A DNA stretch of 64,000 nt from Parcubacteria group bacterium (GTDB lineage: Bacteria; Patescibacteriota; Patescibacteriia; UBA2169): assembly GCA_016181765.1 (NCBI GenBank), contig JACOYR010000004.1, positions 201,853 through 265,852 on the forward strand, read 5' to 3'. Position 1 is the stretch's first letter, and each line of letters starts with the position of its first letter. The position numbers were made by a program, and so were the translations under genes. Positions 11,361-63,285 of this stretch are shown here, one piece after another. Under the pieces are notes generated by a model, which had not been told where the DNA came from, did not search any database, and was given only the letters and a program-made list of their open reading frames with translations.

Positions 11361-11447
11361 AGAGTTTTGGGCAAAGGGCATTCACCCCTAACCCCTCTGC
11401 CCCTTGCCCAAAACAAAAAATAAATTTAAGATTTAAGAAAAAAAAGC
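11361..11447 (+). repeat. repeat B, copy 1: terminator-like hairpin ttttgggcaaagggca…tgccccttgcccaaaa plus an AT-rich tail, directly after fic
   Basis: It is about 90% identical over its first 53 bp to 12658-12745. Confidence 0.7.
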
Positions 11448-11487
11448 CTACCAAAAGACATCAAAAAAAATATTTTTAGAACAGCGT

Positions 11488-11605
11488 ATAACACTGAATA
11501 TGCGGTTCAAAAACATTGCCCCTTAGATATGATCGGTCGCAATGTTTTTTCACCCATATTTGCCTCCGCTACGCTTTGGCAAACATCGCATATTCAGGAA
11601 CGTTG
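11488..11605 (+). repeat. palindromic element A, copy 2
   Basis: The 5' 68 bp are near-identical to copy 1, and it ends with tcgcatattcaggaacgttg. Confidence 0.7.
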
Positions 11606-11943
11606 TAACCGCTCAACAAGACCGTAGAGACCAAAACGATTATTTCCATCAGCAAATAAACATATTCGTAAAAAATTTGAGTGACGGCAATGAGGTGCAA
11701 ATCCTGTCCACCCAAGGAGATGTAAGAGAAACGGGATGGGTTAGTGCAAGCTTTAGTCCTGACAGCAAATACGGCGTATACAATCTAAACAAGCAGCTCT
11801 GGATTCTTGACGCTGAAACTGGAGAAAAAACACAGCTTACAACCGAGTTGAGAGAGTACCGCGAACCTCGTTGGTCTACGGACGGAAATAAAATTATCTA
11901 TACTACGGGTGAAGAAGTAAGATTAATTAAACTGACATTTTGA
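11542..11943 (+). pseudogene. fragment of a TolB-like PD40 beta-propeller protein (probable gene remnant)
   Basis: The translation …SDGNEVQILSTQGDVRE…FSPDSKYGVYN…REPRWSTDGNKIIYTT contains PD40-type repeats. There are only about 100 aa of the domain, and the ORF's 5' end runs into repeat element A, so no credible start exists. Confidence 0.35.
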
Positions 11944-12032
11944 TTCTATCAAATACATATATTTCCCTTGAACCTGCCCATGAGGCGGGCAGACACCCCA
12001 TTAGTTCCCCTCCGCCCTTTACCTATCAATTC

Positions 12033-12563
12033 ATGAAACCAACACCAAACAACTTCGCCTACATTGACGCCGCCAACTTGCACCGGGGCGTTATTCAGCT
12101 TGGCTGGCAATTGGATTACAAGAAATTCCGGATCTGGCTGAAAGAGAAATACGGCGTTAGCCAGGCCTATCTTTTCATCGGTCTGGTGCCCAAGCACAAA
12201 GATTTATACACCAGCTTGCAGGAAGCCGGCTTTACCCTTGTCTATAAAGAAATAACCTATGACGGCGAGGGCAAGGTCAAAGGAAATTGCGACGCTGATT
12301 TGGTGCTTAAAACCACCCGCGACGCTTACGAAAACTCGTTTGCGCAAGCGATTTTGGTTTCCAGCGACGGCGATTACGCCGGCTTGGTTAAATTTTTGCT
12401 GGAAAGAAACAAGTTCATGGGCATTATTTCCCCGTCAGTTTCGGCCAAATGTTCGGTGCTATTGAAACGGACCGGCGCGCGCATAGCGTACATCAATGAC
12501 CAGAGGTCCATATTGGAAATTACAAAAGGCGGCCAAAAAGAAAAAGCCCCCGGCCGGGACTAA
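12033..12563 (+). CDS. NYN-domain (LabA-like) putative ribonuclease
   Basis: Conserved acidic residues of the NYN fold are seen in FAYIDAANL…GNCDADLV…VSSDGDYAGLV. The ORF opens at 11940, but the Met at 12033 is the likely start. Confidence 0.8.
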   Translation: MKPTPNNFAYIDAANLHRGVIQLGWQLDYKKFRIWLKEKYGVSQAYLFIGLVPKHKDLYTSLQEAGFTLVYKEITYDGEGKVKGNCDADLVLKTTRDAYENSFAQAILVSSDGDYAGLVKFLLERNKFMGIISPSVSAKCSVLLKRTGARIAYINDQRSILEITKGGQKEKAPGRD

Positions 12564-12657
12564 CCCCGGCAAGGGTCTTTTTCGTAGTGATAAATACAGT
12601 ATAGCAGTTTGAGGCAAAAAGTCAATATAACTTATAAACAGCCCAAAAACAGACAAA

Positions 12658-12745
12658 GAGTTTTGGGCAAAGGGCATTCACCCCTAACCCCTCTGCCCTT
12701 TGCCTAAAACGGAAAAAACTTATTTTAAAATTTAAGAAAAAGCCG
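12658..12745 (+). repeat. repeat B, copy 2 (after the NYN gene)
   Basis: It carries the same hairpin as copy 1 with one compensating mismatch, and the same aaatttaagaaaaagcc tail. Confidence 0.7.
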
Positions 12746-12785
12746 ATTGAAGAAAAATTCAAAGAAAAAAAATTACATCGCGCAA

Positions 12786-12910
12786 CAGCGCATATGAGGT
12801 TCGGGAAAAAGCGATAATTTGATATAATCAAGGTGTCGCCTTTCCCCTCTCCCAAACCCGCCAAGGAGGCGGGCTTCTCATATGCGCGAACGTTCTGCGA
12901 AATAAAATAA
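12786..12910 (+). repeat. palindromic element A, copy 3 (diverged): outer IR gcgcatatgag/ctcatatgcgc, 3' tail gaacgttctgcgaaataaaataa
   Basis: Its architecture and conserved 3' tail match copies 1 and 2. Confidence 0.55.
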
Positions 12911-12926
12911 TTTTATTCAATTTTTT

Positions 12927-13183
12927 ATGAGTATAGAAAGACCTGAAAACATACAAGAACAGCTTCGGGAAATTTTTTTAAAGGAAGAATATACCTGTCG
13001 CCGGAACAATTAAAAATCATTGATTTCTTGGACCAGATGGGGCGCATTGTCGTTAAAGACGCGGAAGAGATATTGTCCTGCCCGCGGCGCACGGCGCAAT
13101 TGCACTTGCAAAAATTAAAAAAGATTAAAATGATTAAAGCCACCGGCAAAGGCAAATCCACCGCCTATATCGCCAATAAATAA
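12927..13183 (+). pseudogene. winged-HTH regulator (…LSPEQLKIIDFLDQMGRIVVKDAEEILSCPRRTAQLHLQKLKKIKMIKATGKGKSTAYIANK) split by a frameshift in a T7 tract
   Basis: The ATG at 12927 gives MSIERPENIQEQLREIFLKEEYT and then a stop. Frame +2 (read relative to that ATG) continues from 12947 as an HTH with the typical GKG(K/R)ST.Y ending. The two frames join at aatttttttaaagg. Confidence 0.4.
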
Positions 13184-13213
13184 TAAGGGTGTTTAAGGCG
13201 CGCGGTATGTATG

Positions 13214-18230: not shown

Positions 18231-19775
18231 TCACTGCCGCTTGAGCGCTTTTTTGAGCAGTTTTGCCGCGAGAACCGGATCAGCCTTGCCGCGGGCCTCC
18301 TTCATCACCTGGCCCACAAAATACTGGAACACCGCCTTTTTGCCGGAGCCATACTCTGCCGCCTGCAAGGGGTTATTTTTGACGACCCCTGCGACAATGC
18401 CGGGAAGCGCACCCGAATCTCCCATGGCGCCCAAATCCTTTGACTCCAAAATATCCGTCGGGTCCCCGCCGGTTTTAACCATCTCCGAAAGTATGACCTG
18501 CGCGTTCGCTGCATTGACGCGCGACTGGTGCACCAGGGTGATGAGTTCAGCCATATTCTCGGGCGTGATCTTGATGTCCGCGATTGATGAACCGGCCGTG
18601 CGCAAAACGCCGAGCAGTTTGGACAAGAGCCAGCTTGAAACTAATCGCGCGAGTTTTTTCTTGTCCTGTTCCCATGCTTCTTCGCTGCTTTGGTCCGGGT
18701 CAAGCAAGGTAAGCCACACCTTGAGCTCGGAAATCACCTCCTCGCCGAAGCGTGCGAGCGCGCGATCAGACGCAAACGTCTTGGCATCAGCCGCGCTGAA
18801 TCCATACTCTTGGACAAACCGTTGGCGCAAATCACGCGGCAATTCAGGAATGCCTTTTTTGATGCGGGCAACCCAAGACTCATCAAAATCCAGCTCCGGA
18901 ATGTCCGGGTCAGGAAAGTACCGGTAATCAGCAGACCCCTCCTTGCCGCGCTGGACCACGGTTTTGGCGCTGTCCTCGTCCCAGCCACGCGTGCCCTGCT
19001 CGCCCGGCGCGTTGCCGGTCTCCTCCCACACTGCGGTTTGGCGCTTGATCTCGTAGACAAGAGCGCGCTCAACGGCCTTGAATGAATTCAAATTTTTGAT
19101 CTCAGTCTTGGGATACAGAACTTCCCCCTCCTTTACCAAGGAGGGGGTCGGGGGGTGGTTCTTGGAGTGCATAGGCCGCAAAGAAACATTGGCATCGCAC
19201 CGCAGATGCCCCTTTTCCATGTCCGCGTCCGACACCCCGAGGTAGCGCATAATCAAGCGGAGTTCGCGCAAAAACGCGCCCGCTTCTTCCGGAGACCGGA
19301 TGTCTGCTTCGGTCACGATTTCCATCAGGGGCGTGCCCCCGCGGTTGTAGTCCACGAATGAATCGCCTTTTTCGTTATGCAAAAGTTTTGCCGCGTCCTC
19401 TTCTAAATGCAGGCGGTGGATGCGGATCGCGCGCTCCTCCCCGCCTATGACGATGCTCATGGAGCCTTTCACGCCGATGGGCTCGTCAAACTGGGAAATC
19501 TGGTAGCCTTTGGGCAGGTCCGGGTAAAAGTAGTGCTTCCTGTCAAACTTGGAATGGGGGGGAATCTCGCACCCCAAAGCAAGCGCGGCCAACACGGCCC
19601 ACTCAATGGCCTGCTTGTTGGGAACCGGCAAGGTTCCCGGGTGCCCCAGGCACACCGGGCAGATAGTGGTGTTCGGGGCCTCGTTTTCGCCCTCATTTGA
19701 GCAACCGCAAAACATCTTGCTCTTGGTTTTGAGCTGCACGTGGATTTCCAGGCCAATGACCGGTTCAAGCTTCAT
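18231..19775 (-). CDS. gatB: Asp/Glu-tRNA amidotransferase subunit B
   Basis: MKLEPVIGLEIHVQLKTKSKMFCGCS… and the C-terminal GatB/YqeY domain are present. One GC palindromic mini-element (19124-19159) is inserted in frame and encodes …KNHPPTPSLVKEGE…. Confidence 0.95.
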   Translation of the reverse strand: MKLEPVIGLEIHVQLKTKSKMFCGCSNEGENEAPNTTICPVCLGHPGTLPVPNKQAIEWAVLAALALGCEIPPHSKFDRKHYFYPDLPKGYQISQFDEPIGVKGSMSIVIGGEERAIRIHRLHLEEDAAKLLHNEKGDSFVDYNRGGTPLMEIVTEADIRSPEEAGAFLRELRLIMRYLGVSDADMEKGHLRCDANVSLRPMHSKNHPPTPSLVKEGEVLYPKTEIKNLNSFKAVERALVYEIKRQTAVWEETGNAPGEQGTRGWDEDSAKTVVQRGKEGSADYRYFPDPDIPELDFDESWVARIKKGIPELPRDLRQRFVQEYGFSAADAKTFASDRALARFGEEVISELKVWLTLLDPDQSSEEAWEQDKKKLARLVSSWLLSKLLGVLRTAGSSIADIKITPENMAELITLVHQSRVNAANAQVILSEMVKTGGDPTDILESKDLGAMGDSGALPGIVAGVVKNNPLQAAEYGSGKKAVFQYFVGQVMKEARGKADPVLAAKLLKKALKRQ

Positions 19776-27647: not shown

Positions 27648-28085
27648 CTAGGCGTGCTTGTCTAAAAATGTGCTGTAAGAATCGGCAAACTGCTGAAAAA
27701 CATCAGGGGCTTTCTGCAAATACGCATACACTTTTTTAAAATCAACATCTGCATACTCATGAATAAGCAAATTTCTGAATTTTGTCATATCCTTATTCTC
27801 ATTGATTATTTGTTGCGGAACAACTCCGACTTCTCCCAAAAGGCGCACAATATCAGAGTAATCTTCGGCTGATTTTTGAAAAACAGTACTCAAAATATGA
27901 TTTCCCGCATCAGTTATAATCGCAATCCCAATCGCTAAATCAAACATAGCCGCCCCGTTCAACTTTTTGTCAGCGATAAAATCCTCTTGAGTTTGCGCCT
28001 CTTCGGCATATTCCCGCAAATCACTGATGAGATCTTGCAATTTCATCAATTTTTTTTGAATTGATTTTCTATCTAGTGGGGACAT
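27648..28085 (-). CDS. hepT: HepT-like (DUF86) toxin
   Basis: The Rx4HxY motif RNLLIHEY is present. The gene is AT-rich and overlaps the 3' end of the MNT gene. The start is uncertain (ORF to 28196; Met at 28085 or 28046). Confidence 0.75.
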   Translation of the reverse strand: MSPLDRKSIQKKLMKLQDLISDLREYAEEAQTQEDFIADKKLNGAAMFDLAIGIAIITDAGNHILSTVFQKSAEDYSDIVRLLGEVGVVPQQIINENKDMTKFRNLLIHEYADVDFKKVYAYLQKAPDVFQQFADSYSTFLDKHA

Positions 28086-28536
28086 ATATTTCCGGTTTGC
28101 CAAATGTTTTATGAACCAAATGTCGGCGCATGATTTGATACTGTGTTTCGCGGATGTGGTTTGTGTCTTCGTATTCTCTCCTGATTTTTTGCTCAATCAT
28201 AAATCGCTGTTCCTCATCAGTAACATACAGCGGCTTTGCGTAAAACACGGCGCGATGTTTCAACAGCGGGCTCTTGCATGTTTCCAAATTAACCACATCA
28301 ACGCGGTCAATCTTAAACACACTCCCAATATCGGACATCATGCTCAACTCCAAATCAAACTGCTTGTCTTTTGGTACTTTCTTGGAAAAAACCACGGCAA
28401 TGTCCACATCCGACAAAGGACCGACATTACCCCTGGCGCGCGAGCCAAACAAATACGCCAGCGCAACCTTGCGCTTTTCAAAAATCGGGGCCAGTTTTTG
28501 CTTGATTTCTTCAATGGTTTTGGTCATATAATCCAA
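28069..28536 (-). CDS. mnt: MNT (minimal nucleotidyltransferase) antitoxin
   Basis: The GSxxxG…DxD motif GSRARGNVGPLSDVDIAV is present. It lies upstream of, and overlaps, hepT. Confidence 0.8.
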   Translation of the reverse strand: MDYMTKTIEEIKQKLAPIFEKRKVALAYLFGSRARGNVGPLSDVDIAVVFSKKVPKDKQFDLELSMMSDIGSVFKIDRVDVVNLETCKSPLLKHRAVFYAKPLYVTDEEQRFMIEQKIRREYEDTNHIRETQYQIMRRHLVHKTFGKPEIYVPTR

Positions 28537-31246: not shown

Positions 31247-32335
31247 TTATTTCACCGCATAATTTTTCGCGGCAAACACGTACTGCTCTATGAAGATAGC
31301 CTTAAATGGAATAATTGAATTAACCTCGTAAAACACGAGGGTCGCTTCGCGGTAGTCTTTCTCCTTTACGCTCCGATAGGATAGAGGCGCGCAGTTGTGC
31401 GCCAGCAATATCGCGTTTGCCATAATGCGCGCGGTGCGCTTATTGCCGTCATTAAACGGCTGAATGTAGCTGATGCCGAGCAAGGCCAAGAGGGCTTTGG
31501 CATAGGGGGTTTTCGCCCTTGCCATGGCGGCCGCCAGCGCCTCTACCGCCTCTCTAATCTGATGCGCGTTGTCCAGCGGCCGATACTTGGAACCGGTTAC
31601 GCCGACCGGTTTTTGGCGCAATCCCGCGCCCACGCTTAAATCTTTCACTACCATGCCATGCAGTTGTTCAAGATTAGGGCGCGTCAGAACGCGAAACTCT
31701 TTCTTATGTTCGTACACAAACTCAAACGCGTCCTTGTGATTGAGAATCATGCGGGCTTCTTTTTTATCATGCCCAAGAGCTTCCTTGCGCTCTAAAATAA
31801 GCTTCTCCGTGTCAAGAAGCGTATACGTATTCCCCTCAATCTTTGATGATTTCCAGGACAGTTCTATGATGAGCCGTTCTAATTCTTTCTTTTGAATGGC
31901 CCGCGGTAACCGCGCCGTCCGCGCATGATATTCGTCGGTTGCCTTTTCAAGAGCGGCTTGTTCGGCCGGAGTGAAGATATCGGAGAGGAACGACGGCAGC
32001 AGATCAAAATTAAAACGCGCGAGCCCAAAGCGCTCGTCCGGTTCCGTGGCGCAGTAACGGTTCGCGTCCACCTCGCTCCAGATGCGCCCTAAAACGCTGA
32101 TGCCGTACGCGCGCGACCGGCCGCGGCCAAAAGCGGCCAAAAGCCCCGCCGCGGCCATGCGGGATAGTTCTCGCTTAATGGTTACCAGCGAGGTTTCTTG
32201 GCCTTCTCTGGCCAGGCGGCTGTGAACCTCTGAAGAACTTATGAAATCTTGGCGTAGAAATAAATCCAGTATTTTTTGCTGCTTTGAACTGATTATGGTC
32301 ATAATCGTATCATTTATACTAATTAATCGTATCAA
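31247..32335 (-). CDS. HTH-Fic family protein with a degenerate Fic motif (QPFNDGNKRTAR instead of HPFx[D/E]GNGR)
   Basis: An N-terminal winged HTH is followed by a Fic fold. The catalytic His is replaced by Gln and the second Gly by Lys. Confidence 0.75.
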   Translation of the reverse strand: MIRLISINDTIMTIISSKQQKILDLFLRQDFISSSEVHSRLAREGQETSLVTIKRELSRMAAAGLLAAFGRGRSRAYGISVLGRIWSEVDANRYCATEPDERFGLARFNFDLLPSFLSDIFTPAEQAALEKATDEYHARTARLPRAIQKKELERLIIELSWKSSKIEGNTYTLLDTEKLILERKEALGHDKKEARMILNHKDAFEFVYEHKKEFRVLTRPNLEQLHGMVVKDLSVGAGLRQKPVGVTGSKYRPLDNAHQIREAVEALAAAMARAKTPYAKALLALLGISYIQPFNDGNKRTARIMANAILLAHNCAPLSYRSVKEKDYREATLVFYEVNSIIPFKAIFIEQYVFAAKNYAVK

Positions 32336-32383
32336 AATGATACGATTATGTCAAACATATCGCCCGTAACCACTCACAATGGT

Positions 32384-32422
32384 AAGCTAGAAGTTATAGC
32401 AAGGTAGCGGGCCATTTTTTTT
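32384..32422 (+). repeat. direct repeat of 31200-31236 (aagctagaagttatagcaagg[c/t]agcggg…ttttttt) lacking the left stem arm
   Basis: About 34 of 37 positions are identical. Together with 31200-31236 it brackets the HTH-Fic gene. Confidence 0.7.
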
Positions 32423-32473
32423 GACTAAAATAGCTTGTAGTGTTAATCTAGTAGTATAGAGAATCCAATACAT

Positions 32474-32680
32474 ATGGAAACAGCAACAATGCCTAAAAAA
32501 ATAAGCTCCGCATCATTACACGAGCTTAAACCGTTTATTGTGCAGACAATTTCCGAAGTCTTGAACGACCCTGATTTTGGTTTAGAGCTAAGCGATCGGG
32601 CGCAGGCAAGGCTGCGGCAATCCAGAGAATCTTCGGATAAAACAATCTCGTTCAATGATGTCAAAAGAAAGTATCATTAA
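32474..32680 (+). CDS. putative antitoxin (68 aa) of the ParE-like toxin
   Basis: It is a small ORF 7 bp upstream of a ParE/RelE-family gene, in an AT-rich islet. The family is not recognised. Confidence 0.5.
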   Translation: METATMPKKISSASLHELKPFIVQTISEVLNDPDFGLELSDRAQARLRQSRESSDKTISFNDVKRKYH

Positions 32681-32686
32681 ACCCAT

Positions 32687-32956
32687 ATGGGGGAATGGGA
32701 GTTGGAATTTTCCGTTGCGGCCGAGGATGACCTCGCCGCGCTTGATAACGAACTGCGGCAGAGAATCATCAATAAGCTTGATTGGTTTTTGGAAAATTTT
32801 GATTCGCTTTCTCCTGAATCATTAACCGGCGAGTACAGGGAATTTTATAAATTGAGAGCGGGCCAGTGGAGAATATTCTATAAGGTCAACTGGCAACAAA
32901 AGACAATCACGGTCCACTATATTGACCCGAGAGACAAAGCGTACAGGAAAAGATAG
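32687..32956 (+). CDS. ParE/RelE-superfamily type II toxin
   Basis: The C-terminus …LRAGQWRIFYKVNWQQKTITVHYIDPRDKAY is characteristic of RelE/ParE. Confidence 0.75.
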   Translation: MGEWELEFSVAAEDDLAALDNELRQRIINKLDWFLENFDSLSPESLTGEYREFYKLRAGQWRIFYKVNWQQKTITVHYIDPRDKAYRKR

Positions 32957-36211: not shown

Positions 36212-38581
36212 TTACCTAAACGAAACGTTGTATTTTTTTGCGAGTACTGACCGCAGTTTTTCCATAATCACATCAACTTCTTTTGATTCTAACGTCCGGT
36301 CCGTGGAGAAACAGGTGAGGCGCACGGTCAGGCTCGCGCTTGTTTCCAGGCCGTGGTAGGAATCAAACAACTCAACCTTTTTTATGAGCGGATTAAAATG
36401 GGAAATCGTAGCCTCAAGCTCCCTGTATTCTACCACAGAAGGCACGGAAAGCGAAAGGTCGCGCTCCACAACCGGGTAAAACGGAATAGGGGCGTATACT
36501 GCTTTTCCCTTTGCGCGGGCACCGGAGAGCGCCTCCACGTCAAGGAATGAGATTGCGCACGAGCTCCGAAACCGCAGTCCCGGAACCGTTCCTCTGGGAT
36601 GGATGGTGATGAATCCAATGGGACGCTTGCGGACGCCTATGCGGTACGTGCCGCGCTCCTTTTCCATGGTCAGCTGCTCACCCGTGAATGACGCGATGAT
36701 TCCGACTAAGGTGCGGAACAGTTCCTCGTCTGACTGTTTCGTGTTGATGAGCCCAATGGCCGCTTTCCAGGACTCGCCTTTTGTTTTGCGGAACACCTTG
36801 CCGATCTCAAACAAGCGGAACGCATCGCGCGAGAGCAGTGATGAATTCTTGGAAAGTTTTTCCAGCATCCACGGCCCAAGCGAAGTTCGCAGGTACGGAA
36901 ATTCATCGTTGACCGGGTTGGTAAGCTTGATGTGCTCCGCCTTTGCGTGGCCCGAAAGTTTGATGGCGCTTTCCTGGTAGAACGAGTACGTCAAAAGCTC
37001 CGTGAATCCGAGGCCCGCCAAAAAGTGGCGCAACGCATGCCGCAGCTCGTGCAAGGGTAGAACCCTCGGGCTTGCAAGCGTTGCCATGGGCAAGGTCTTG
37101 GGGAGCTTGTTGTAATCAAGCATCCTGCCGATTTCTTCTATGAGGTCAGCTTCCTCACGTGTGTCATGCATCCGCCATGACGGAATCTTGACCTCTAATT
37201 TCCCCCCTTTGCCAAGGGGGGGACGAAGGGGGGGTCTTGACGTGCCAGCCACGACAAATCCCAGTGATTGCAGGATTGACTTGATTTTTGATGCCGGAAC
37301 CGCAACTCCGAGCAAGCGATGCGCTTCAGCCACTGACAATTTGATGGAGCGCTTGGGAACTTCCGCGCTTCCGGATGACACAATGCCTTTGAGCACCACG
37401 CCGCCTGCCAGGTCGCGGATAGAGGCGGCGGCGCGGTCAATCGCCTCTTCTACGATACTTGGGTCCACGCCTTTTTCAAATCTGCTGGATGATTCACTGC
37501 GCAATCCAAGAGCTTTTGACGTTGCGCGCACAGATGCGCTATTGAACACCGCAGCCTCCAGGATGATGTTCTGGGTGCCGTTATTGATGCCGGATTCTTT
37601 ACCCCCCATAACCCCGGCAATTGCCGCGGCGCGCTTCTCATCAGCCACCACGAGCATGCTTTCCGTGAGCGTGTAGGTTGCATCGTCCAAGGCAATGATT
37701 TTTTCCCCGCGCTTTGCGCGCCTAACAGTTATCGTGTCCCCTGCCATCTTGTTCGCGTCAAATGCGTGCAAGGGGTGGCCCAACTCGTACATCACGTAGT
37801 TTGTCGCGTCAACCACGTTGTTGATGGATGCAATGCCAGCCTGGGCGAGCCGGTTGGAAAGCCACAGCGGAGACGGCGCGACTGAAACGCCCTGGATCAC
37901 GCGGGCGCAATAGAGCGGGCAGAGCTTCTTGTCCGCGATTTTAACGGTGAGAGATGATGATGCGCTGGTGCCGCTTTCCTTTATTCCCCCTCCTTTATTA
38001 AGGAGGGGGCGAGGGGGTGGTTTGAGCTTGAGCCCATACAGCGCCGCAACCTCCCTCGCAAGCCCGCGTATGGAAAAACAGTCGCTGCGGTTCGGGGTAA
38101 TGGCAAGCTCCAGCACAGCCTCATCTAATCCAAGAAATTTGACCGCGTCAGCCCCTATTTTCGCGTCTTTGGGAAGAATAAAAATGCCGGAGTGGTCATC
38201 GTTTATGCCCAGTTCTCTTGGTGAGGCCAACATGCCGTGTGATTTGATGCCGCGCACGGATCTAGCCTCTATCTTCAAGCCCGGAACGCTTCCGCCAACC
38301 AAAACGCAGGGAACCTTTTGGCCGACCGCAATGTTCGGGGCGCCGCACACAATTTCCAGCAATGACTTGTTGCCCACATCAACGTACGCGATCTGCAACT
38401 TGTCCGCGTTCGGGTGCGGCTTAATGTTTTTGATCTGGCCCACCACGATTTTTGACAAACCATTGGCATTGTCCGTAATCTTCTCAACTTCTGAACCGGA
38501 CAGCGTTAAGCGCTCCGCAATCTCGTGCGGTTTCGCTTTCACGTTCACAAATTCTTTCAGCCAACTGATTGGTAGATTCAT
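36212..38581 (-). CDS. pheT: phenylalanyl-tRNA synthetase beta subunit
   Basis: The N-terminal tRNA-binding domain (MNLPISWLKEFVNVKAKPHEIAERLTLSGSEVEKI), the B3/4, B5 and FDX-ACB regions are present. Two GC palindromic elements (37201-37236 and 37986-38022) are inserted in frame. Confidence 0.95.
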   Translation of the reverse strand: MNLPISWLKEFVNVKAKPHEIAERLTLSGSEVEKITDNANGLSKIVVGQIKNIKPHPNADKLQIAYVDVGNKSLLEIVCGAPNIAVGQKVPCVLVGGSVPGLKIEARSVRGIKSHGMLASPRELGINDDHSGIFILPKDAKIGADAVKFLGLDEAVLELAITPNRSDCFSIRGLAREVAALYGLKLKPPPRPLLNKGGGIKESGTSASSSLTVKIADKKLCPLYCARVIQGVSVAPSPLWLSNRLAQAGIASINNVVDATNYVMYELGHPLHAFDANKMAGDTITVRRAKRGEKIIALDDATYTLTESMLVVADEKRAAAIAGVMGGKESGINNGTQNIILEAAVFNSASVRATSKALGLRSESSSRFEKGVDPSIVEEAIDRAAASIRDLAGGVVLKGIVSSGSAEVPKRSIKLSVAEAHRLLGVAVPASKIKSILQSLGFVVAGTSRPPLRPPLGKGGKLEVKIPSWRMHDTREEADLIEEIGRMLDYNKLPKTLPMATLASPRVLPLHELRHALRHFLAGLGFTELLTYSFYQESAIKLSGHAKAEHIKLTNPVNDEFPYLRTSLGPWMLEKLSKNSSLLSRDAFRLFEIGKVFRKTKGESWKAAIGLINTKQSDEELFRTLVGIIASFTGEQLTMEKERGTYRIGVRKRPIGFITIHPRGTVPGLRFRSSCAISFLDVEALSGARAKGKAVYAPIPFYPVVERDLSLSVPSVVEYRELEATISHFNPLIKKVELFDSYHGLETSASLTVRLTCFSTDRTLESKEVDVIMEKLRSVLAKKYNVSFR

Positions 38582-43000: not shown

Positions 43001-43091
43001 GCTCAACCGCCTTTTTCTGTTCCGGATTGAGCCCTTCTAATATCTCCCCTACTCGCTGAGGAGGGGGCGAGGAGGTGATTTCTGTTTCCAT
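40029..43091 (-). CDS. UvrD/PcrA-family helicase fused to a C-terminal PD-(D/E)xK (RecB/Cas4-like) nuclease domain
   Basis: The Walker A segment is LLIVAGAGTGKTTVI, and UvrD motifs follow. The C-terminus …GRMDRCDQLADGSIRIVDYKTG… matches the nuclease. The product is 1020 aa. Confidence 0.85.
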   Translation of the reverse strand: METEITSSPPPQRVGEILEGLNPEQKKAVEHKGKPLLIVAGAGTGKTTVITRRIAWLIMEQGIKPDEILALTFTNKAADEMIERCDKLLPYGYVDLWVSTFHTFCQRILDSHALDIGLPGDVELLDGTGQWLLVRAHLQKFNLDYYQPTNNPTKFIRSMLSHFSRLKDEEITPEAYLEYAESLRASSDDMEASGGKSSKFKAQSSKTEKRDSEEACRVVEMANAYHAYQQLLLDNNKMDFGDLINYTLKLFRERPGVLKKYQEQFKHVLVDEFQDTNWAQYELVKMLAKPQDNLTVVADDDQSIYRFRGASMSNVIQFSKDYKDVATVALVKNYRSGQAILDAAYDFIQLNNPNRLEAAKQFDLNKKLVSQTKEIAKVEHLHCASAPDEARVVAETIAELKKRDKDATWNDFAVLVRANSQAAIFEDALASINIPHQNYAASGLYKTTIVANILAFFDVLDDYHESRAIFRLLNLLFLTIPIEDIIKLTHYASKKNVALYELLRAPQRAGISDSDALLEMQRVRSWIEKYGDAAKTQKPTSLLFDWMQDEGYFDYLNAMPDADSMREYRYLRYFWEHLKEIEAAIGDGRVKDIVSIIKQERDSGDSGSLPPDAESGPEMVRVMTIHSAKGLEFKYVFVTNLVDRRFPTIERREAIEIPDALIKEVIPEGDHHLEEERRLFYVAMTRAKSGLFFTSAESYGGTQKKKLSRFLVELGEAHKPFAPSVKALAGDHTSFLPRARRGPTAPFKLPIPTRFSFTQLKIFDADPFEYKLQFIYKVPMKGKYVFSYGSTMHAALQQFFQLVSQKQRAGQTDLFGNRTESPKNGLSVALDELLDIYEKSWIDDWYEDAEQKEKYRKQGASRLKDFYEHLSQSGVVPQVKALERGFSIKVGEYTIVGRMDRCDQLADGSIRIVDYKTGTPKKALSKEDKFQLLIYQIAAEEVFREKIGELAYHYIDAENIKSGENLVPFIGTDKDKQEVKDWILGVIKRIHESDFSPSEDRFFPSEDVEYLRDLGEAGII

Positions 43092-53061: not shown

Positions 53062-54246
53062 CTAGATTCCAAAAAAGCGTCTAGCGTTCTCCGTAGTTTG
53101 GGAAGCCACTGTATCATAGTCCTGCCCCCGAATGAACGCAATACCCCTGGCCACATATTCAACATATGACGGTTCATTTTGCTTTCCGCGGTAGGGCTCG
53201 GGCGCCAAATAAGGTGAATCAGTCTCAATCATCATCCGATCCATGGGAATATTGCGTACTACCTCCTTTAATGTTTCGCTGGCGTTTTTGAATGTCACAA
53301 TGCCGGTAAAGGAAAGCATCAGCCCCAAATCCAAAAACTTTTTAGCCATCGCCCAGTCCCCGCCATAGCAGTGCAGAACGCACTTGAAATACCCGAAGTC
53401 TTTGATGATATTATAGAGATGTTCGTAAGCCGTAAGACCACCCCCCAGTCCCCTCTGTCGTGCCGGAATGGGAATCTCCTCTGATACCATTCCCCCTCCT
53501 GTAACCAGGAGGGGGTTAGGGGGTGGTGCTTTGGATTCTGTTTTACTATCACGCGAATGCAGTATGACAGGCAGTTTTTTATCCCGCGCAATGGTTAAAT
53601 GCGCCCGCAATAAATCTTCCTGTTTTTTTAAGATAACTTCGCGCTGATTCTCGTCAATATGGAAATGGTCAATCCCGGTCTCCCCGATTGCCACAACTTT
53701 TGGATGATCAGCCGCTTTGTTAAACCAGTCAAAATCGAACTCCTCATCCGTGTGCGTCGGATGCACGCCCAAGGCGGCAAAAACGCCATCGCTGGATTCC
53801 GCGATGGCGATGGATTTTTCACTCGTGGCCTTAGCCGCGCCCACGGCAATCATCTGAATATCTTTCTCCCGGGCGCGTTTGACCACCTCGGGCCAGGAAT
53901 CGTCAAAAGCTTTAAACGCTAAATGGCAATGGGTGTCGATGAGCATAATTAATTGAGGAAAGTGAACAGGGAGTCCTAATTCCGTTGAACCAGTTAATTT
54001 TGTTGCTACAATGCCATTGAGGTCGTACTTCTCTGACTGATAAATGGAACTGACTTGTTGGCCGCCGATAATTCCGTCTTTATTGTATTTCTGAATAAAG
54101 TCGTCAAGCTTAACATTCCCTACTGATATTCCAAAACTTGCTGTATATAACTTCTCTTCTCTTAGACCTGTATATGTTACCCCTCTAGACTCATCGGACG
54201 AACCAGTTACCTCCCAATCAACGGTTGGAGCTAACTTCTTGTTCAT
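53062..54246 (-). CDS. tatD: TatD-family metal-dependent DNase with an about 100-aa N-terminal extension and an internal Pro/Gly-rich insertion
   Basis: TatD motifs MLIDTHCHL… and …GETGIDHF… are present. The insertion KAPPPNPLLVTGGGMVSEEIPIPARQRGLGGG is encoded by GC palindromic elements at 53442-53527. Confidence 0.85.
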   Translation of the reverse strand: MNKKLAPTVDWEVTGSSDESRGVTYTGLREEKLYTASFGISVGNVKLDDFIQKYNKDGIIGGQQVSSIYQSEKYDLNGIVATKLTGSTELGLPVHFPQLIMLIDTHCHLAFKAFDDSWPEVVKRAREKDIQMIAVGAAKATSEKSIAIAESSDGVFAALGVHPTHTDEEFDFDWFNKAADHPKVVAIGETGIDHFHIDENQREVILKKQEDLLRAHLTIARDKKLPVILHSRDSKTESKAPPPNPLLVTGGGMVSEEIPIPARQRGLGGGLTAYEHLYNIIKDFGYFKCVLHCYGGDWAMAKKFLDLGLMLSFTGIVTFKNASETLKEVVRNIPMDRMMIETDSPYLAPEPYRGKQNEPSYVEYVARGIAFIRGQDYDTVASQTTENARRFFGI

Positions 54247-55119: not shown

Positions 55120-56461
55120 TTACTTCCGGGGGAACAATGGTTTTGCCTTTTTGACCGGCGAACTGCTGAACTGCTCCATAATATATTCCGCGGTTTCAGG
55201 CAAGAACGGCTGCAGGAGAACGGCAATATTCAGAATCTGCTGGCTCACCGGCTCAAGCACTTGCTTTTTCTCGCCTGCTGATTCCATCTCCCAGGGCTTT
55301 GATTCGGCAAGCGTTTCATCAACCCTTGAGAGCTCCCGCCAGAGCACGGCGAGCGCTTCGTTGAACTGGTAGCGCTCCATTGCGGATGAGACGGCCGTAG
55401 CGAGCTTCTTGTCGCTGCCCGGCGCGATGGAAACCGTGATTGCGTCTTTTTCCAAAAGCGTTGAAACGCGGGAGATAACATTCCCCAGGCCATTGGCGAG
55501 GTCTCCGTTGTAGCGCTGTTCAAATTTTTCAATGGTGGTCTATGACCGCACCGCTTGACTTGGACATCTTTTTGCCTTCGCTCGTGATGAATCCGTGGAT
55601 CAGGATCTGTTTGGAATTCGGCAGCCCGGCGGACAAGAGCATTGCCTGCCACATGGATGCCTGCTGGCGCAAATTGTCCTTGCCCGCGATTTGCACGCCC
55701 GGCCAGAACTTTTTGAACATTGCCTCATCGCTTGGCCAGCCGAGCGTGGAAATATAGTTGACCAAGGCATCAAACCACACGTACATCACCTGGCGCTCAT
55801 CCCCGGGAACCGGAACGCCCCAGGGCATTTTCTCCCGCAACCGCGAGACGCTGAAATCTTCCAGCCCGGATTTCACGAACTCCGTAATCTCTTTTAGCCG
55901 GTGCGGGGGCAGCACAAAATCGCTCTGCGATTCATACAGCTTCAAAAGCGGCTCCTGGTACTTTGAAAAACGGAAAAAATAATTTTCCTCGTCTATAGTT
56001 TCAAGGGCTGTATCCGGGTGCAGAGGGCACTTCCCATCCGCAAGTTCTGATTCAGTCTTTTCCAGTTCGCACCCAACGCAGTATTTGACCTTGTAATTTT
56101 TCTTGTAGATGTCCCCTGCCGCCTCGCACCGCTTCCAGAACTCCTGGGCCGCGGCTTTGTGGGCCGGATCAGTGGTGCGGATGAACGCGTTATAGCTCAA
56201 GTTCAGAGCAGCCTTAAGATCATCAAACCGTTGCGCGTGCTTGTCTGTGTACGCCTGCGGATCCTCGTGGGCCTCCTGGGCCTTGCGGTAGATTTTGAGG
56301 CCATGCTCGTCCGTGCCCGTGTTGAAAAACACCTCATCCCCCTGCAAGCGGCGGTAGCGCGCAATGGCGTCCGCCTGCGCGATTTCCAGCGCAAACCCGA
56401 TGTGCGGGCTCGCGTTTACGTACGGAAGGGTGGTGGTGATGTAGAATGGCTTTGCCATCAA
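55120..56461 (-). pseudogene. metG: methionyl-tRNA synthetase (minimal form) interrupted by a frameshift and stop just after the KMSKS motif
   Basis: The 5' ORF (55529-56461) has HIGH-type P-loop PHIGFALE and KMSKS. The 3' ORF (55120-55455) has the anticodon-binding helices FEQRYNGDLANGLGNVISRV. About 30 aa expected between KMSKS and this helix are absent. Confidence 0.8.
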
Positions 56462-59276: not shown

Positions 59277-59621
59277 CTATAGTAACAAACGCTCTTTTAT
59301 TATGGCAATCAACTCTTTCTCATGCTTGTAAATTCCATGCCGCGAAAAGACCAGCAGTGTGGCCGCTTGAGGTGACGCCATTTGAAACGCAAGGCGGTAG
59401 CCGTGCGACTTGCCCACGTTCTCCCCGAGCGGCACGACCCGCGCTTTGTACACGCGCTCATTGCCGAACTCGTTGAACTGCTCAATGCCGGGTGTCTCGG
59501 CTAAACCCTTAACGCAAAACAAGCGCACCCACGCCTGGAGCGATTCTTCCGGAGCTGGGTAGCGCTTGAGTTTTTTAAAATCTTTCTTGATGCCATCGTG
59601 CCGCTCCACCTCCATACTCAC
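59277..59621 (-). CDS. putative toxin partner of the Panacea-domain antitoxin (RelE/ParE-like fold suspected)
   Basis: The 114-aa ORF overlaps the stop of the upstream Panacea gene by 4 bp. Its C-terminus reads YRLAFQM…LLVFSRHGIYKHEKEL. Confidence 0.45.
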   Translation of the reverse strand: MSMEVERHDGIKKDFKKLKRYPAPEESLQAWVRLFCVKGLAETPGIEQFNEFGNERVYKARVVPLGENVGKSHGYRLAFQMASPQAATLLVFSRHGIYKHEKELIAIIKERLLL

Positions 59622-60124
59622 ACCTTCGCCATCTCTCCATACGTATTGCGATAGTAGGACAAATTGTAATCAATCACGCCGTCCGGCTTGGTGGCAATCC
59701 AGGGCGCCTCGCCGTGGCTCGCGTTCTTCATTTCGGCGCCGGAAAACTTTTCCCATTTGCCAGCAATCTCCTCAAGCATCAAGAGTTCTTCTCTGCTGAA
59801 CGCGGAAACGTCAAACGGCTTGAGGGGTTCTATGAGCTGCTGCTCCCGGTATCCGTCCACAACAGCGCGCCTGCTGATTTTGATGTCCCGGCCATCCATC
59901 TTCTTGAGCATCTTTTCCGCCATGCGCGGCACCGGCCCGTTCTCAAACCGCAGGTACTGGTCGCCGGTAACTGACCTACCGTATTTCTCAAAAAAATCAA
60001 AATCCAAAAAGTAGAGCAGCTTCATGAGTTTGAGCTTCCCTAGTGTCCCGTTGCGAACTTTATTAGCAAAAAAAAGTACTGCGTTGCGGTACTTTTTCTC
60101 ATTGATTCGGAATCGTGCGGTCAT
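59618..60124 (-). CDS. Panacea-domain (DUF4065, SocA/GepA-like) antitoxin
   Basis: The segment KLMKLLYFLDFDFFEKYGRSVTGDQYLRFENGPV matches the Panacea/DUF4065 core. The ORF is open to 60154. Confidence 0.65.
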   Translation of the reverse strand: MTARFRINEKKYRNAVLFFANKVRNGTLGKLKLMKLLYFLDFDFFEKYGRSVTGDQYLRFENGPVPRMAEKMLKKMDGRDIKISRRAVVDGYREQQLIEPLKPFDVSAFSREELLMLEEIAGKWEKFSGAEMKNASHGEAPWIATKPDGVIDYNLSYYRNTYGEMAKV

Positions 60125-60254
60125 AGCGCTTACAGTATATAACAAAAACGGCATGGCCGCAACACAGCCCTATTCCGCTGCTAAGCGCCACCTACTCACG
60201 CTCGCCCACGCCCGGCTGGAACCGCCAATAGCAATGATGTATTTTTTTGGCATG

Positions 60255-61574
60255 TCAATTAAGTTTCTCCCGCACATACCCCGCAAGTTCCCCAACCTTG
60301 ACGCGCACTTGCTGCATAGTGTCGCGGTCCCGGATGGTGGCTGTGTCGTCCTCAAGCGTGGTAAAGTCTATGGTGATGCAGTAGGGCGTGCCGATCTGGT
60401 CCTGGGAGTAGTAGCGCTTGCCCACATTGCCCCTATCATCCCAGACAGCCATGAACTTCTGGCGCAGGTCCTGGTAGATACTTTGCGCTTTTGCAACGAG
60501 CTCGGGCTTGTTGCGCATGAGCGGAAACACCGCAACTTTGTAGGGCGCGAGCTTTGGAGCGAGTTTGAGCACTTCCCTATCACCCTCTTGGCTGTAGCTG
60601 CTTGCGAGGATAGCAAGCAAGGTGCGGTCAACGCCCAATGATGGCTCTATCACGTGCGGCCAAAAATCTTCGCCTGATGCAGGGTCTTTGTACGGAGCTT
60701 CCTTAAAGTGGTTTTTGAGGTCAAAGTCCGTGCGGTACGCAAGCCCGTACAACTCGTCTTTTCCGAACGGAAAATCAAACTGGAAATCAACAGTCTTTTT
60801 TGAGTAGTGCGCCAACTCATCCTTGGGCACGTCAAACTCATGCACCTTGCCGGAATTGATGCCGCAAGCTTTGATCCATTCATGCATTTCTTTTACCCAC
60901 ATTGCAAACGGCTCCTCCCAATCCTTGTCGTCTTTTGGCGCGGGAATAAAGTACTCAATCTCCATCTGCTCAAACTCGCGCGTGCGGAAAATGAAGTTGC
61001 CTGGAGTGATTTCGTTGCGGAACGCTTTTCCGATTTGCGCAATGCCGAACGGCAATGTCTTGCGCGAAGTTTGCAGTACGTTTTTAAAATCAACAAAAAT
61101 CGCCTGCGCGGTTTCCGGGCGCAGGTACACAACATTGCTCTCATCCTCAACCGGCCCCAAGTGCGTGCGGAACATCATGTTAAACTGCGCTGGCGCAGTG
61201 AGTTCCCCCGCGCACTCCGGACAAGAACCACCCCCTGACCCCCTCCTCGTTTGAGGAGGGGGAAGTTTATCGGCGCGGAAACGCGAGTGGCACTTTTTGC
61301 ACTCAACCATGGGGTCATTGAACTCGGAAACATGGCCGCTCGCCTCCCACACTTTTGGGTTCATAATCAATGCCGCGTCCAAGCCCACCATGTCATCCCG
61401 CCTGCGCACAAACAGGTCCCACCAGAGCGCTTTGATGTTGTTTTTGAGCTCAACCCCCAAGGGGCCATAGTCCCAGGAGTTGGCAAGGCCCCCGTAAATT
61501 TCGCTTCCCGGGTAGATAAATCCCCGCTGCTTGGCCAGAGAAATAATTTTTTCCATGAGGTCTTGTTTTTGCAT
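60255..61574 (-). CDS. glyQS: glycyl-tRNA synthetase (dimeric GlyQS type)
   Basis: …GGLANSWDYGPLGVELKNNI… and class II motifs are present. A GC palindromic element (61227-61262) is inserted in frame and encodes ADKLPPPQTRRGSGGGS. Confidence 0.95.
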   Translation of the reverse strand: MQKQDLMEKIISLAKQRGFIYPGSEIYGGLANSWDYGPLGVELKNNIKALWWDLFVRRRDDMVGLDAALIMNPKVWEASGHVSEFNDPMVECKKCHSRFRADKLPPPQTRRGSGGGSCPECAGELTAPAQFNMMFRTHLGPVEDESNVVYLRPETAQAIFVDFKNVLQTSRKTLPFGIAQIGKAFRNEITPGNFIFRTREFEQMEIEYFIPAPKDDKDWEEPFAMWVKEMHEWIKACGINSGKVHEFDVPKDELAHYSKKTVDFQFDFPFGKDELYGLAYRTDFDLKNHFKEAPYKDPASGEDFWPHVIEPSLGVDRTLLAILASSYSQEGDREVLKLAPKLAPYKVAVFPLMRNKPELVAKAQSIYQDLRQKFMAVWDDRGNVGKRYYSQDQIGTPYCITIDFTTLEDDTATIRDRDTMQQVRVKVGELAGYVREKLN

Positions 61575-61639
61575 ACAATAGCTCTATGATAGCACGAAAG
61601 CTTGACAAAAATCAATCAATGTGCAAGTATACACGTACT

Positions 61640-62190
61640 TTCGCGATTCCCCGCTCCTTAACACGCCAGGCTAGCCCCCTCTCTTCAGAGAGCCTGGCCG
61701 GCCCGGCAGGCCTCGCCCTGCGGACGCACGTCCGTGCCTGTCCGGGCCACTGTACTTCGGCCTCGTTGCAATCAGCTGCCTTGGCTGCCCCCCAGCCAGT
61801 GCTTTGTCCGCTGATTGAGGCCGGAAGCCCAGCTTCTTTGCTCGCAACACCCCTCCGCGAGCACGGCGACAAGAAGCTGGCGCTGCGCGGAGGGTGCGGC
61901 GCTAGACGCACCCTCCGCGCTCATCTGCTCTTCTTAAAAAACCCACGTCGGTTGCCGCCGCGCGAGCAGATCGCCATCTGCTTTCTCCCTTGGCAGCCGA
62001 CACGCCGGCGGGCGTTTCTCATCTCGTCGCCCGCCGGCACCTTCCGCCGACCCGCTCCTCGGGCCCCAGCCGCAAAACGGCGGGAAAAGAATGGGTCGGC
62101 CGCCATGGCAGGCCTTCATCCTGGCATGGCAAGCCCGGCGGGTGGTGCTTTGCGGCTTCGGTCGCATTGCATCACCCCCGGGTCTTTTTT
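61640..62190 (+). other. about 550-bp, about 70% GC, hairpin-dense non-coding region ending in a T7 run (candidate structured RNA or decayed element)
   Basis: There are several perfect 8-14-bp stems (gcgcggagggtgcg…cgcaccctccgcgc, gccggcgggcg…cgcccgccggc, caatcagc…gctgattg). Only Arg/Ala/Pro-rich junk ORFs are found here. Confidence 0.3.
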
Positions 62191-62193
62191 TAC

Positions 62194-63285
62194 TTACAGT
62201 TTTCCCTTGCTGACGGCAGTGCGGATGCGGCGCATCAATTCAAGGTAAAAATCCACGTTATTGAGCGTGGCGAGCCGCACTGCGAGCGGCTCTTGTGTTT
62301 TGAAAAGGTGGTGCAGGTACGCGCGCGAATACGTTTGCAGCTCTTTGATGTGTGATTGCGCGTTGATGGGAACAAAGGACTTTGCGAATCGCGCGTTGGT
62401 GATGGATGCGGCTTCGTACCCGAATCCCGCGCCTTTCCAAAAGTACAGCCGAGCGTGCCTGGCTTCGCGCGTGGGAATCACGCAGTCAAACAAATCAATG
62501 CCGCGTTTTACGGCCGCAACAATCTGTTCCGGCTTGCCCACGCCCATAAGGTAGCGCGGCTTTTCGGCCGGAAGTTCGGGGACCGTGTACTCAAGGACTT
62601 TGAACATGTCGCTTGCCGGCTCGCCGACCGCCAAACCGCCGATGGCATACCCGTCAAAATCCAGATTGACCAATTCGCGCGCTGATTTAAGGCGCAAGTC
62701 CGGATGGATTGAACCCTGTACAATTGCAAACAACAGTGCGTTATTAAGATTGCCGCGTCGCTTCGCTCCTCGCAATGACATAGTAGCCCACTTCGTCGTC
62801 AACTCTACTGCGCGTTCCGCTTCTTTGCGGGAGCAGGGGTACGCCGGGCACACGTCAAGGACCATGCGGATGTCCGAACCGATCACTTCCTGGATCTCCA
62901 GGGCTTTTTTCGGAGTCAGCAAAAACTCTCTGCCGTCTCTGTGCGACCGAAACCGGACGCCTTCCGGGAGAATCTTGCGGATCTTTGCCAGTGAAAAAAC
63001 CTGGAACCCGCCCGAGTCCGTAAGCAACGGGCCGTGCCAATCCATGAACTTGTGCAAGCCTCCTGCCTTTTTCAAAATTAACAGCCCGGGCTGCAACAGC
63101 TGGTGATACGTATTTGAGAGGATGATCTGCGCTTTGAGATTGCGCATATCATCTCCGGTCAAAGATTTGACCGCGCCCTTGGTTGCGATGGGGCAAAAAA
63201 ACGGCGTCTGGATAGAGCCGTGCGGCGTCTTGAGCGTGCCGAGCCGCGCCAGTGAGCGCCTGGATTGTTTGCGGATAGCGAACAT
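62194..63285 (-). CDS. tgt: queuine tRNA-ribosyltransferase
   Basis: The motif …GSIQTPFFCPIATKGAVK… and the zinc-binding C-terminus are present. Confidence 0.95.
   Translation of the reverse strand: MFAIRKQSRRSLARLGTLKTPHGSIQTPFFCPIATKGAVKSLTGDDMRNLKAQIILSNTYHQLLQPGLLILKKAGGLHKFMDWHGPLLTDSGGFQVFSLAKIRKILPEGVRFRSHRDGREFLLTPKKALEIQEVIGSDIRMVLDVCPAYPCSRKEAERAVELTTKWATMSLRGAKRRGNLNNALLFAIVQGSIHPDLRLKSARELVNLDFDGYAIGGLAVGEPASDMFKVLEYTVPELPAEKPRYLMGVGKPEQIVAAVKRGIDLFDCVIPTREARHARLYFWKGAGFGYEAASITNARFAKSFVPINAQSHIKELQTYSRAYLHHLFKTQEPLAVRLATLNNVDFYLELMRRIRTAVSKGKL

Follow-up and report, generated by a model that had tools for sequence, protein, structure and literature searches.

The stretch of DNA analysed here, called the window below, comprises 64,000 nucleotides (nt) from a Parcubacteria group bacterium, and our subject is the gene-free gap of 620 nt (61575-62193) that separates its glyQS and tgt genes. 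Both flanking genes are read from the - strand. The gene glyQS (60255..61574; Pfam tRNA-synt_2b and HGTP_anticodon), whose product is 100% identical to the NCBI entry 'glycine--tRNA ligase [Parcubacteria group bacterium]', lies at one end of the gap, and tgt (62194..63285; Pfam TGT, E = 9e-135) lies at the other. Exact look-ups of the GlyRS and Tgt proteins of the window, with the start codons assigned here, found no record. Judged from the sequence, the gap probably contains an independent gene, transcribed from the + strand, whose product would be a structured non-coding RNA that matches no described family; glyQS is divergent from this predicted RNA and tgt is convergent with it.

An earlier note on this DNA, made without database searches, had placed the element between glyQS and tgt, and its coordinates proved correct, both flanks being confirmed by Pfam. 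Its statement that the region is some 10 points richer in GC than its neighbours also holds (66.6% at 61640-62190 versus 53.2% in glyQS and 55.4% in tgt, a gap about 11-13 points higher), while its absolute figure of about 70% was too high. All four stems that it quoted were located in the gap: a perfect 14-nt stem (61885-61898/61907-61920), a perfect 11-nt stem (62004-62014/62028-62038), caatcagc/gctgattg (61769-61776/61810-61817) and gcagat/atctgc (61966-61971/61976-61981). The 3' end that it had read on the + strand, a hairpin followed by C and T7, is present as well, the sequence ...CACCCCCGGGTCTTTTTTT (62172-62191) stopping 2 nt short of the tgt stop codon.

Predicted transcription unit

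For comparison we used the contigs encoding the closest relatives of the window's GlyRS, the spacer being defined as the tgt-glyQS interval. The homologue set has six members, namely the window, loci L081, L082, L086 and L087, and a short form represented by L083-85. In the window the predicted primary transcript of about 555 nt extends over 61637..62191 (+), its 5' end being deduced from the promoter and its 3' end set at the end of the U-tract; the predicted RNAs of the homologues measure about 160-715 nt.

The putative promoter consists of a -35 element TTGACA (61602..61607, +), invariant in all six homologues, and a TG-extended -10 element TGcAAGTAT (61622..61630, +; hexamer AAGTAT at 61625-61630), of which the TG and the A2 and T6 positions are conserved. 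The consensus common to the whole set reads GCTTGACAAA[A/C]ATCAA[T/C]CAAT[G/A]TG[C/A]AA[G/A][A/T]AT, and the promoter scan of the RNA strand found TTGACA-17-AAGAAT with an upstream TG (10/12 matches) in L082, L086 and L087. This promoter stands back-to-back with that of glyQS and overlaps it. The glyQS promoter identified by the same scan (61586..61615, -) has its -35 TTGATT at 61615-61610 and its TGc-TATCAT -10 at 61591-61586, the latter ending 11 nt ahead of the ATG at 61574; across the scanned loci it takes the form TTGAT[T/G]-17/18-TAT[C/T]AT on the strand opposite to the RNA, and its -10 is kept also in relatives that do not have the RNA (L088 gap). The TTGACA of the RNA sits inside the spacer of the glyQS promoter and is not found in the relatives without the RNA. 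Since such a spacer is expected to be free of constraint, the invariance of TTGACA needs an explanation of its own.

The transcript would begin with a pyrimidine-rich 5' leader (61637..61664, +) with a conserved core CGCUCCUU at 61652-61659. All six leaders, including that of the short form of about 165 nt, have a GCUCCU-type motif, and 4-12 CUCC/CCUC/UCCU starts lie within the first 95 nt of each homologue. The leader shows complementarity to glyQS codons 15-18, which we attribute to chance because only an 8-nt core is shared among the relatives and the match is interrupted by a central mismatch. The 9-mer CCCGCTCCT occurs twice, in the leader (61650-61658) and in a window-specific hairpin (62051-62059).

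At the other end a predicted intrinsic terminator (62133..62191, +) is formed by a two-tier 51-nt hairpin (62133-62183) with a C(UUCG)G loop, followed by C and U7 (62184-62191). A terminal hairpin with a T-rich tract occurs on the RNA strand of all six homologues: in the five long forms it is capped by C(UUCG)G and followed by [U]CU7, while in the short form the loop differs and the T-rich tail is more interrupted. The terminator block is 88% identical to those of L086 and L087, versus 59-66% at the fourfold degenerate sites of glyQS, and it contains five compensatory pairs among five sequences. A simple terminator scan does not list the window terminator because its stem holds internal loops. 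Read from the - strand, this hairpin has A7 in front of it and CUUGCC behind it, and therefore it is no terminator for tgt. At the level of consensus, the region thus possesses both marks of an independent non-coding RNA gene, a promoter and an intrinsic terminator of its own.

Folding and hairpin modules

In the minimum free energy (MFE) fold of the + strand, about ten GC-rich hairpins are arranged in a linear chain, with linkers between them that are poor in G and rich in C and U; in all homologues 70% of the unpaired positions are pyrimidines and 10% are G. The energy of this fold is -305 kcal/mol versus -229±6.5 kcal/mol for 100 dinucleotide shuffles, none of which was as good (z = -11.7). 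A GC-rich control segment of the window (1660-2075; 416 nt, 64% GC) gave z-scores of -0.6 and -0.9; GC content alone therefore cannot account for the structure of the gap.

The modules follow one another in the order leader, hairpins B, C, D, E and F, linker, hairpins G and H, lineage-specific hairpins and terminator, all on the + strand. Hairpin B (61665..61698), delimited by the MFE fold, has the basal stem GCCAGG/CCUGGC, with counterparts GUCAGG/CUUGAC in L082 and GGUCAG/CUGACC in L086; these were read from the sequences, as the length of this hairpin is too variable for MAFFT and RNAalifold. Hairpin C (61700..61748) has 11 pairs, all cells of which are paired among the aligned sequences, with three pairs changed on both sides. 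The three-tier hairpin D (61756..61825) has 28 pairs with 82-95% of the cells paired and four double-changed pairs, and its apical loop is C-rich in three of four homologues. Hairpin E (61826..61884; 9 pairs, 97% paired, two double changes) varies in its inner part. The conserved helix of hairpin F (61885..61920), the perfect 14-bp stem, reads GGAGGG/CCCUCC in the window and L082 and GGGGGG/CCCCCC in L081 and L087.

Downstream of F the single-stranded linker UCAUCUGCUCUUCUUAAAAAACCCAC (61921..61946), unpaired in the MFE fold, contains the core GCUCUUC[A/U]UAA, which is kept in the window, L082 and L087 and partly in L081. Hairpin G (61947..62001), with its inner GCAGAU..AUCUGC followed by CUUUCUCC, shows four compensatory pairs between the window and L082 on the one hand and L087 on the other, and hairpin H (62004..62038), the perfect 11-bp stem, has homologous hairpins in L082, L081 and L086. 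A 166-nt block in the F-G-H region is 88% identical to L082 versus 71% at fourfold degenerate sites. The following hairpins of the MFE fold (62046..62130; 62046-62099 and 62102-62130) have no counterpart in the relatives, in which this place is occupied by different hairpins, again lineage-specific. The sequence CAUCUGCU is present twice (61921-61930 and 61964-61982), so that GAGCAGAU could pair either with the upstream linker or inside hairpin G; this alternative pairing is identical in L082 and lost in L087.

Covariation and strand

Conservation and covariation in related genomes, proposed as a check in the earlier note, were examined for hairpins C-F in four sequences, using a plain MAFFT alignment made without structural guidance. 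RNAalifold recovers all four hairpins from it. Their 62 pairs are preserved to a high degree (91.7% of 241 cells paired, versus 36-48% when the partners are slid), and ten pairs are changed on both sides, versus 3.8±1.5 in shuffles (0/500 reach ten) and 0-2 with slid partners. Stems in C-F are more conserved than loops. The ten compensatory pairs thus exceed both controls, and the four sequences lend moderate support to the view that compensatory change maintains the base pairs.

The - strand is also able to fold (z = -6.1). The conserved helices read on the + strand contain, however, about 13 G·U cells versus at most three A·C cells, and over the six homologues A·C 1x1 mismatches number six in the + folds versus 21 in the - folds. 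Because of this asymmetry, together with the promoter and the U-tract, the + strand is favoured.

Distribution and origin

The order tgt-glyQS is conserved across the compared loci and the length of the spacer is variable: 796 nt in L082, 720 nt in L081, 600 nt in L087, 489 nt in L086, 229-247 nt in L083-85, 66 nt in L100 and 43-54 nt in L088-90. According to nhmmer, both the long and the 229-247-nt spacers are homologous to that of the window, and the neighbouring GlyRS is 83-90% identical among the homologue lineages. On the GlyRS tree the carriers of the RNA form one clade (P0001-P0007), while a sister pair and the outgroups are free of the insert. In more distant Patescibacteria with the same gene order the spacer is short or filled by unrelated sequence, and among 80 distant GlyRS loci (at most 66% identity) from a scan of genome collections no homologue of the RNA was found by nhmmer or by a covariance model of C-F. 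A metagenome scan with the promoter pattern gave a sole true match, a contig of the known homologue set.

Since the carriers form one clade and the sisters, outgroups and distant loci are without the RNA, the compared sequences show a lineage-specific insertion into an ancestral tgt-glyQS spacer of 43-79 nt, i.e., into a formerly tight gene pair, in one clade of Parcubacteria. They also show that the predicted RNA gene gained and lost hairpins after the insertion. In the shortest natural form (about 165 nt, L083-85) nothing but the leader, a single hairpin and the terminator is left; this form is probably the product of reduction, because it is nested among long forms on the GlyRS tree.

In the marine relatives L096-L099 (GlyRS 77% identical) the spacer of about 575 nt contains an unrelated gene of 101 amino acids (aa) with genome-typical GC, and this open reading frame (ORF) has no Pfam family. 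To judge by these loci, the tgt-glyQS junction is filled independently in different lineages.

A 38-nt palindromic element of the same clade

The window contains 17 perfect hairpins versus 0-4 in shuffles, and four of the 17 belong to one GC-rich element of about 38 nt, TT-CCCCCTCCT-N6-AGGAGGGGG-NN-RGGGGGTGG (0.03 expected by chance). The perfect copies (19124-19147, 37986-38009, 53492-53515 and 61239-61262) lie in either orientation and in frame within the genes for GatB, PheRS-beta, TatD and GlyRS. A profile built from six copies finds seven sites, all in coding genes; degraded copies (43033-43080, 37196-37237 and 53434-53475) are in PheRS-beta, TatD and a UvrD-like helicase, and in the relatives copies occur inside tgt and ileS (L082:1681, L086:3929, L086:292). 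The inserts add peptides of the PPP..GGG type. In GlyRS the copy amounts to an insertion of 9 aa, PPPQTRRGS, which none of the other 119 GlyRS homologues retrieved possesses. The tenth stem pair varies between copies and stays complementary (T-A, G-C, C-G). No copy was found in the 80 distant loci or the sister lineages, so far as these were covered by the scans, and the element and the hairpin RNA are confined to the same clade.

The element, inserted in frame and in either orientation into housekeeping genes, resembles the Rickettsia palindromic elements, which are selfish DNA within protein-coding genes, but it has only about a quarter of their length. We also considered the RNA hairpins as possible copies of it; the best match of the profile in the RNA region has E = 29, which is the chance level, and the RNA is therefore not built from the 38-nt element. 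The exposed CUCC/CCUCC/GCUCCUU segments of the RNA are complementary to the AAGGAGGGGG arm of the element. That the hairpin RNA and the element are two parts of one lineage-specific system is, in our opinion, quite improbable; the RNA of such a system would act on element-bearing mRNAs or on element DNA, for instance as a guide or antidote or by feeding a mechanism that propagates hairpins, a role to which we attach as little probability.

Alternative explanations

The region may be viewed as a non-functional pile-up of GC-rich palindromes, produced at a tolerant site by a DNA-level process such as a selfish hairpin element or template-switch repair, with arm-to-arm correction mimicking compensation. 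Several features agree with this. The same clade, and only this clade, has the 38-nt palindromic element, even in glyQS just 370 nt away; several stems are perfect over 10-14 bp; hairpins were gained and lost between close relatives in a sequence evolving at a nearly neutral rate; and the region is absent from the sister lineages. Against it, the hairpins do not match the element profile (best score in the region E = 29), and none of them is repeated elsewhere in the 64-kb window or in the flanks of the relatives. A DNA-level correction would have no preference for G·U over A·C, while the + strand shows about 13 versus 3 such cells and its folds six A·C mismatches versus 21 in those of the - strand. 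The pile-up also leaves unexplained the invariant TTGACA/TG -10, the hairpin with U7 on one strand, and the blocks retained at 88-91% identity versus 59-71% at neutral sites. We regard it as rather unlikely.

A second possibility places the function on the - strand, whose RNA would be a structured spacer between the cistrons of a tgt-glyQS transcript, serving the protection of the tgt mRNA 3' end, processing or termination, as do enterobacterial repetitive extragenic palindromes (REP) and their mosaic clusters (BIME). Most of the stems are nearly palindromic and can form on either strand, with the z of -6.1 given above for the - strand and a lower - strand MFE in L083 and L087. The ancestral spacer of 43-79 nt suggests co-transcription, and the terminator scan found no - strand terminator of tgt's own in the gap, so that read-through is likely. 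What makes this explanation unlikely is that the U-tract follows the terminal hairpin on the + strand alone in every homologue, that the conserved promoter faces the + direction, that glyQS retains its own -10 element 11 nt from the ATG, and that the G·U/A·C asymmetry favours the + strand.

Much less probable still is that the locus is a diverged form of an RNA class or array already known, i.e., RNase P RNA, tmRNA, signal recognition particle RNA, 6S RNA, a T-box leader of glyQS or a TIGR-type array. The size and the GC enrichment are similar to those of housekeeping RNAs, glyQS is a classic T-box-regulated gene, and TIGR arrays are tandem hairpins with a terminator found in parasitic bacteria (PMC12045711). 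A cmscan of the whole window against Rfam 15 (4227 models), one of the checks suggested in the earlier note, returned no match at the gathering thresholds; at E ≤ 10 both strands of the region gave only hairpin-level noise (15-24 bits versus thresholds of 35-89), and at E ≤ 1 there was no match in the six related loci. RNase P RNA is recognised by its conserved catalytic core (P4 and others) and tmRNA by a tRNA-like domain with a tag ORF, and both are expected to be universal. ARAGORN found no tRNA or tmRNA in the region. The absence of RNase P RNA and tmRNA signatures, claimed before from the letters alone, is thus borne out, and these two RNAs are ruled out by the searches together with the existence of the 165-nt form and the absence of the region in sister lineages, which exclude an essential housekeeping RNA in general. 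A T-box leader would lie upstream of glyQS on its strand and contain a specifier loop, a T-box sequence and a terminator/antiterminator. For such a leader the RNA strand is the wrong one: RF00230 matches neither strand, the U-tract is on the strand opposite to glyQS, and the glyQS -10 lies 11 nt from the ATG.

A TIGR-Tas array is recognised by an adjacent Tas gene with a Nop domain and by repeated units in which box C/D-like motifs flank two spacers of 8-12 nt (PMC12045711). No Nop domain was present in a Pfam scan of the roughly 65 window ORFs or in the recorded neighbour families of the relatives, and neither the window ORFs nor these neighbourhoods contained a gene for Tas, Cas, reverse transcriptase or Y1-transposase. 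The loops of 4-13 nt are too small for two such spacers, repeated box C/D-like motifs and periodicity are lacking, and the sequences are conserved between species, which spacers are not. We accordingly rejected the array.

The earlier note had also considered a cluster of REP-like elements, and this proposal did not survive. The searches for other copies that it recommended (nhmmer and blastn) found no second copy of the region within the 64-kb window; the C-F covariance model matches the syntenic site only; no hairpin recurs in the 64 kb or in the flanks of the relatives, and the hairpins are mutually unlike and do not match the 38-nt element. A REP/BIME cluster was rejected on the lack of a recurring unit in the window and of any significant internal repeat, and an internal duplication (three repeats about 401 nt apart) was dismissed likewise, its local score being 21 versus 20.5±2.9 in shuffles. 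Blastn against phages and plasmids gave no match. Among pattern scans of viral contigs, that with a 16-mer gave 82 chance matches without extended similarity and that with the terminator pattern gave none. Our searches of the literature turned up no description of a comparable non-coding RNA from the candidate phyla radiation (CPR)/Patescibacteria.

Finally, a protein-coding gene is hardly credible: although an identical 220-aa Arg/Ala/Pro-rich + strand ORF (61586..62248) was called by a gene caller on seven Logan contigs (P0121) and an antisense 194-aa ORF, i.e., one of the - strand, in L087, the former matches only itself among 5.8 billion proteins, the ORFs of the gap have no Pfam match, many indels separate the homologues, and the stop-free frames differ in strand, frame and position, being 33-45% similar against the 83-90% identity of GlyRS, in agreement with the earlier view of these frames as artefacts.

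Other features of the window

Many genes of the window have a TG-extended -10 (TATCAT, TACAAT, TATAAT or CATAAT) ending about 10-12 nt before the ATG, as does glyQS (61575-61594). Because of this distance and because Shine-Dalgarno-like motifs are at background frequency, most mRNAs of this organism would seem to be leaderless or nearly so.

An AT-rich island (about 5347-13200; 30-45% GC versus 54% for the window) adjoins the gene of a tyrosine recombinase/phage integrase (5347-6132), carries genes for a Fic/DOC protein, a NYN-domain protein and an 826-aa trypsin-like/LamG protein, and was probably acquired horizontally. Genes of toxin-antitoxin type are found in variable patches of lower GC (59277-60154 on the - strand, 27651-28196 and 31250-32953). 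Among their products are a ParE toxin, a second Fic protein, a HepT-like RNase and a SocA/Panacea-domain protein. The gene of the last, together with a 114-aa gene, is located between glyQS and that of the MPG glycosylase, a site at which the relatives have dnstrm_HI1420 or other small genes instead. The MetRS-like gene (55123-56461, -) is split by a frameshift near 55456-55531 into ORFs for a 310-aa catalytic and a 111-aa anticodon-domain part; the corresponding protein of the relatives is a single chain of 474-483 aa, and the split is either an assembly error or a pseudogene.

Discussion

Of the three alternatives offered in the earlier note, the unclassified structured RNA is the one that our data support, through the lack of an Rfam match, the promoter and terminator found in six homologues and the compensatory changes. 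The third alternative, a decayed GC-rich insertion, appeared to be half right: the region is a lineage-specific insertion, but it is not decayed, 92% of the pairing having been kept while the sequence drifted in a nearly neutral manner.

A number of observations weigh against an independent gene for a + strand RNA. Only six distinct homologues are available, four of them in the covariation test, and the shuffle control used there ignores their relatedness. The identity of C-F between the window and the others (61-66%) is about that of fourfold degenerate sites (59-71%), i.e., approximately neutral, and the hairpin content turns over rapidly among the homologues. The hairpins simply follow one another in a row, neither junctions nor pseudoknots being supported, and the MFE is nearly equal on the two strands, that of the + strand being lower in four of the six homologues and that of the - strand in the other two (L083, L087). 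Promoter and terminator are consensus readings, and, as a weak point, the window promoter is not listed by the promoter scan because its AAGTAT hexamer matches only three of the six consensus positions. The sister lineages live without the RNA, which is therefore dispensable. A DNA-level process that makes or repairs hairpins is possible too, since the clade carries a DNA element that spreads palindromes.

As to the function of a + strand RNA, our tentative proposal, which we hold as one possibility and by no means the expected outcome, is a stable trans-acting regulatory or scaffold RNA in which the exposed segments rich in C and U would either base-pair with purine-rich (GGAG-type) RNA or be bound by a protein, while stability and spacing would come from the hairpins. 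The leader, one hairpin and the terminator retained in the 165-nt form may be taken as the functional core, and their layout is that of a classic trans-acting small RNA. The pairing with GGAG-type sequences is made less likely by the low usage of Shine-Dalgarno sites in the window (11 of 60 genes versus a 16% background). The idea of an anti-Shine-Dalgarno sponge is weakened in the same way, these motifs being at background frequency upstream of the window genes. Effects in cis are conceivable as well: the RNA promoter may compete with that of glyQS, or transcription of the RNA may converge on the read-through from tgt.

The narrow distribution and the simple architecture limit the general importance of the locus. 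It is nevertheless a concrete candidate in a little-studied phylum, with defined predicted ends and a natural minimal version of 165 nt, and the natural series of deletions and expansions across close relatives points to the parts that matter. It shows, on the reading preferred here, the birth of an RNA gene within a formerly tight gene pair and its subsequent growth by the addition of hairpins. If functional, the RNA would provide an entry point to RNA-based regulation in organisms with apparently mostly leaderless-type messages; if non-functional, the region would be a record of a hairpin-generating mutational process in a reduced genome.

Among known systems, the clusters of REP/BIME elements share with our locus the GC-rich imperfect palindromes gathered in an intergenic region near the 3' end of a gene. 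They consist, however, of many genome-wide copies of one consensus, whereas here every hairpin is unique within the 64 kb and the flanks of the relatives, and the cluster has a predicted promoter and terminator of its own. TIGR arrays are similar as tandem stem-loops ending in a rho-independent terminator; in contrast to them, the locus has no nearby Nop-domain Tas gene, its loops are too short for dual spacers, box C/D periodicity is absent and the sequence is conserved between species.

Bacterial structured RNAs of more than 500 nt are uncommon. With OLE, ROOL, GOLLD and HEARO the predicted RNA has in common a length above 500 nt, a GC content that is high relative to the genome and detection as a long GC-rich intergenic region. 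It differs from these RNAs, all of which are in Rfam, by the lack of an Rfam match and of supported junctions or pseudoknots, by a narrower range and by a large variation in length that includes the 165-nt form.

The closest resemblance in layout is to the multi-hairpin regulatory RNAs of Gram-positive bacteria, for example the RNAIII of Staphylococcus aureus, which is 514 nt long and has 14 hairpins, with C-rich loops that pair with ribosome-binding sites. There is no sequence relation between it and our RNA, which has no embedded peptide gene, varies from two to about 14 hairpins among close relatives and belongs to an organism with few Shine-Dalgarno sites. The likeness, for features that are predicted here, lies in an own promoter and intrinsic terminator, a length of about 0.5 kb, a chain of hairpins with exposed C/U-rich loops and linkers, and a restriction to one lineage. 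Placed beside these systems, the locus is likely to represent a new, clade-restricted family of non-coding RNA of a familiar general kind.

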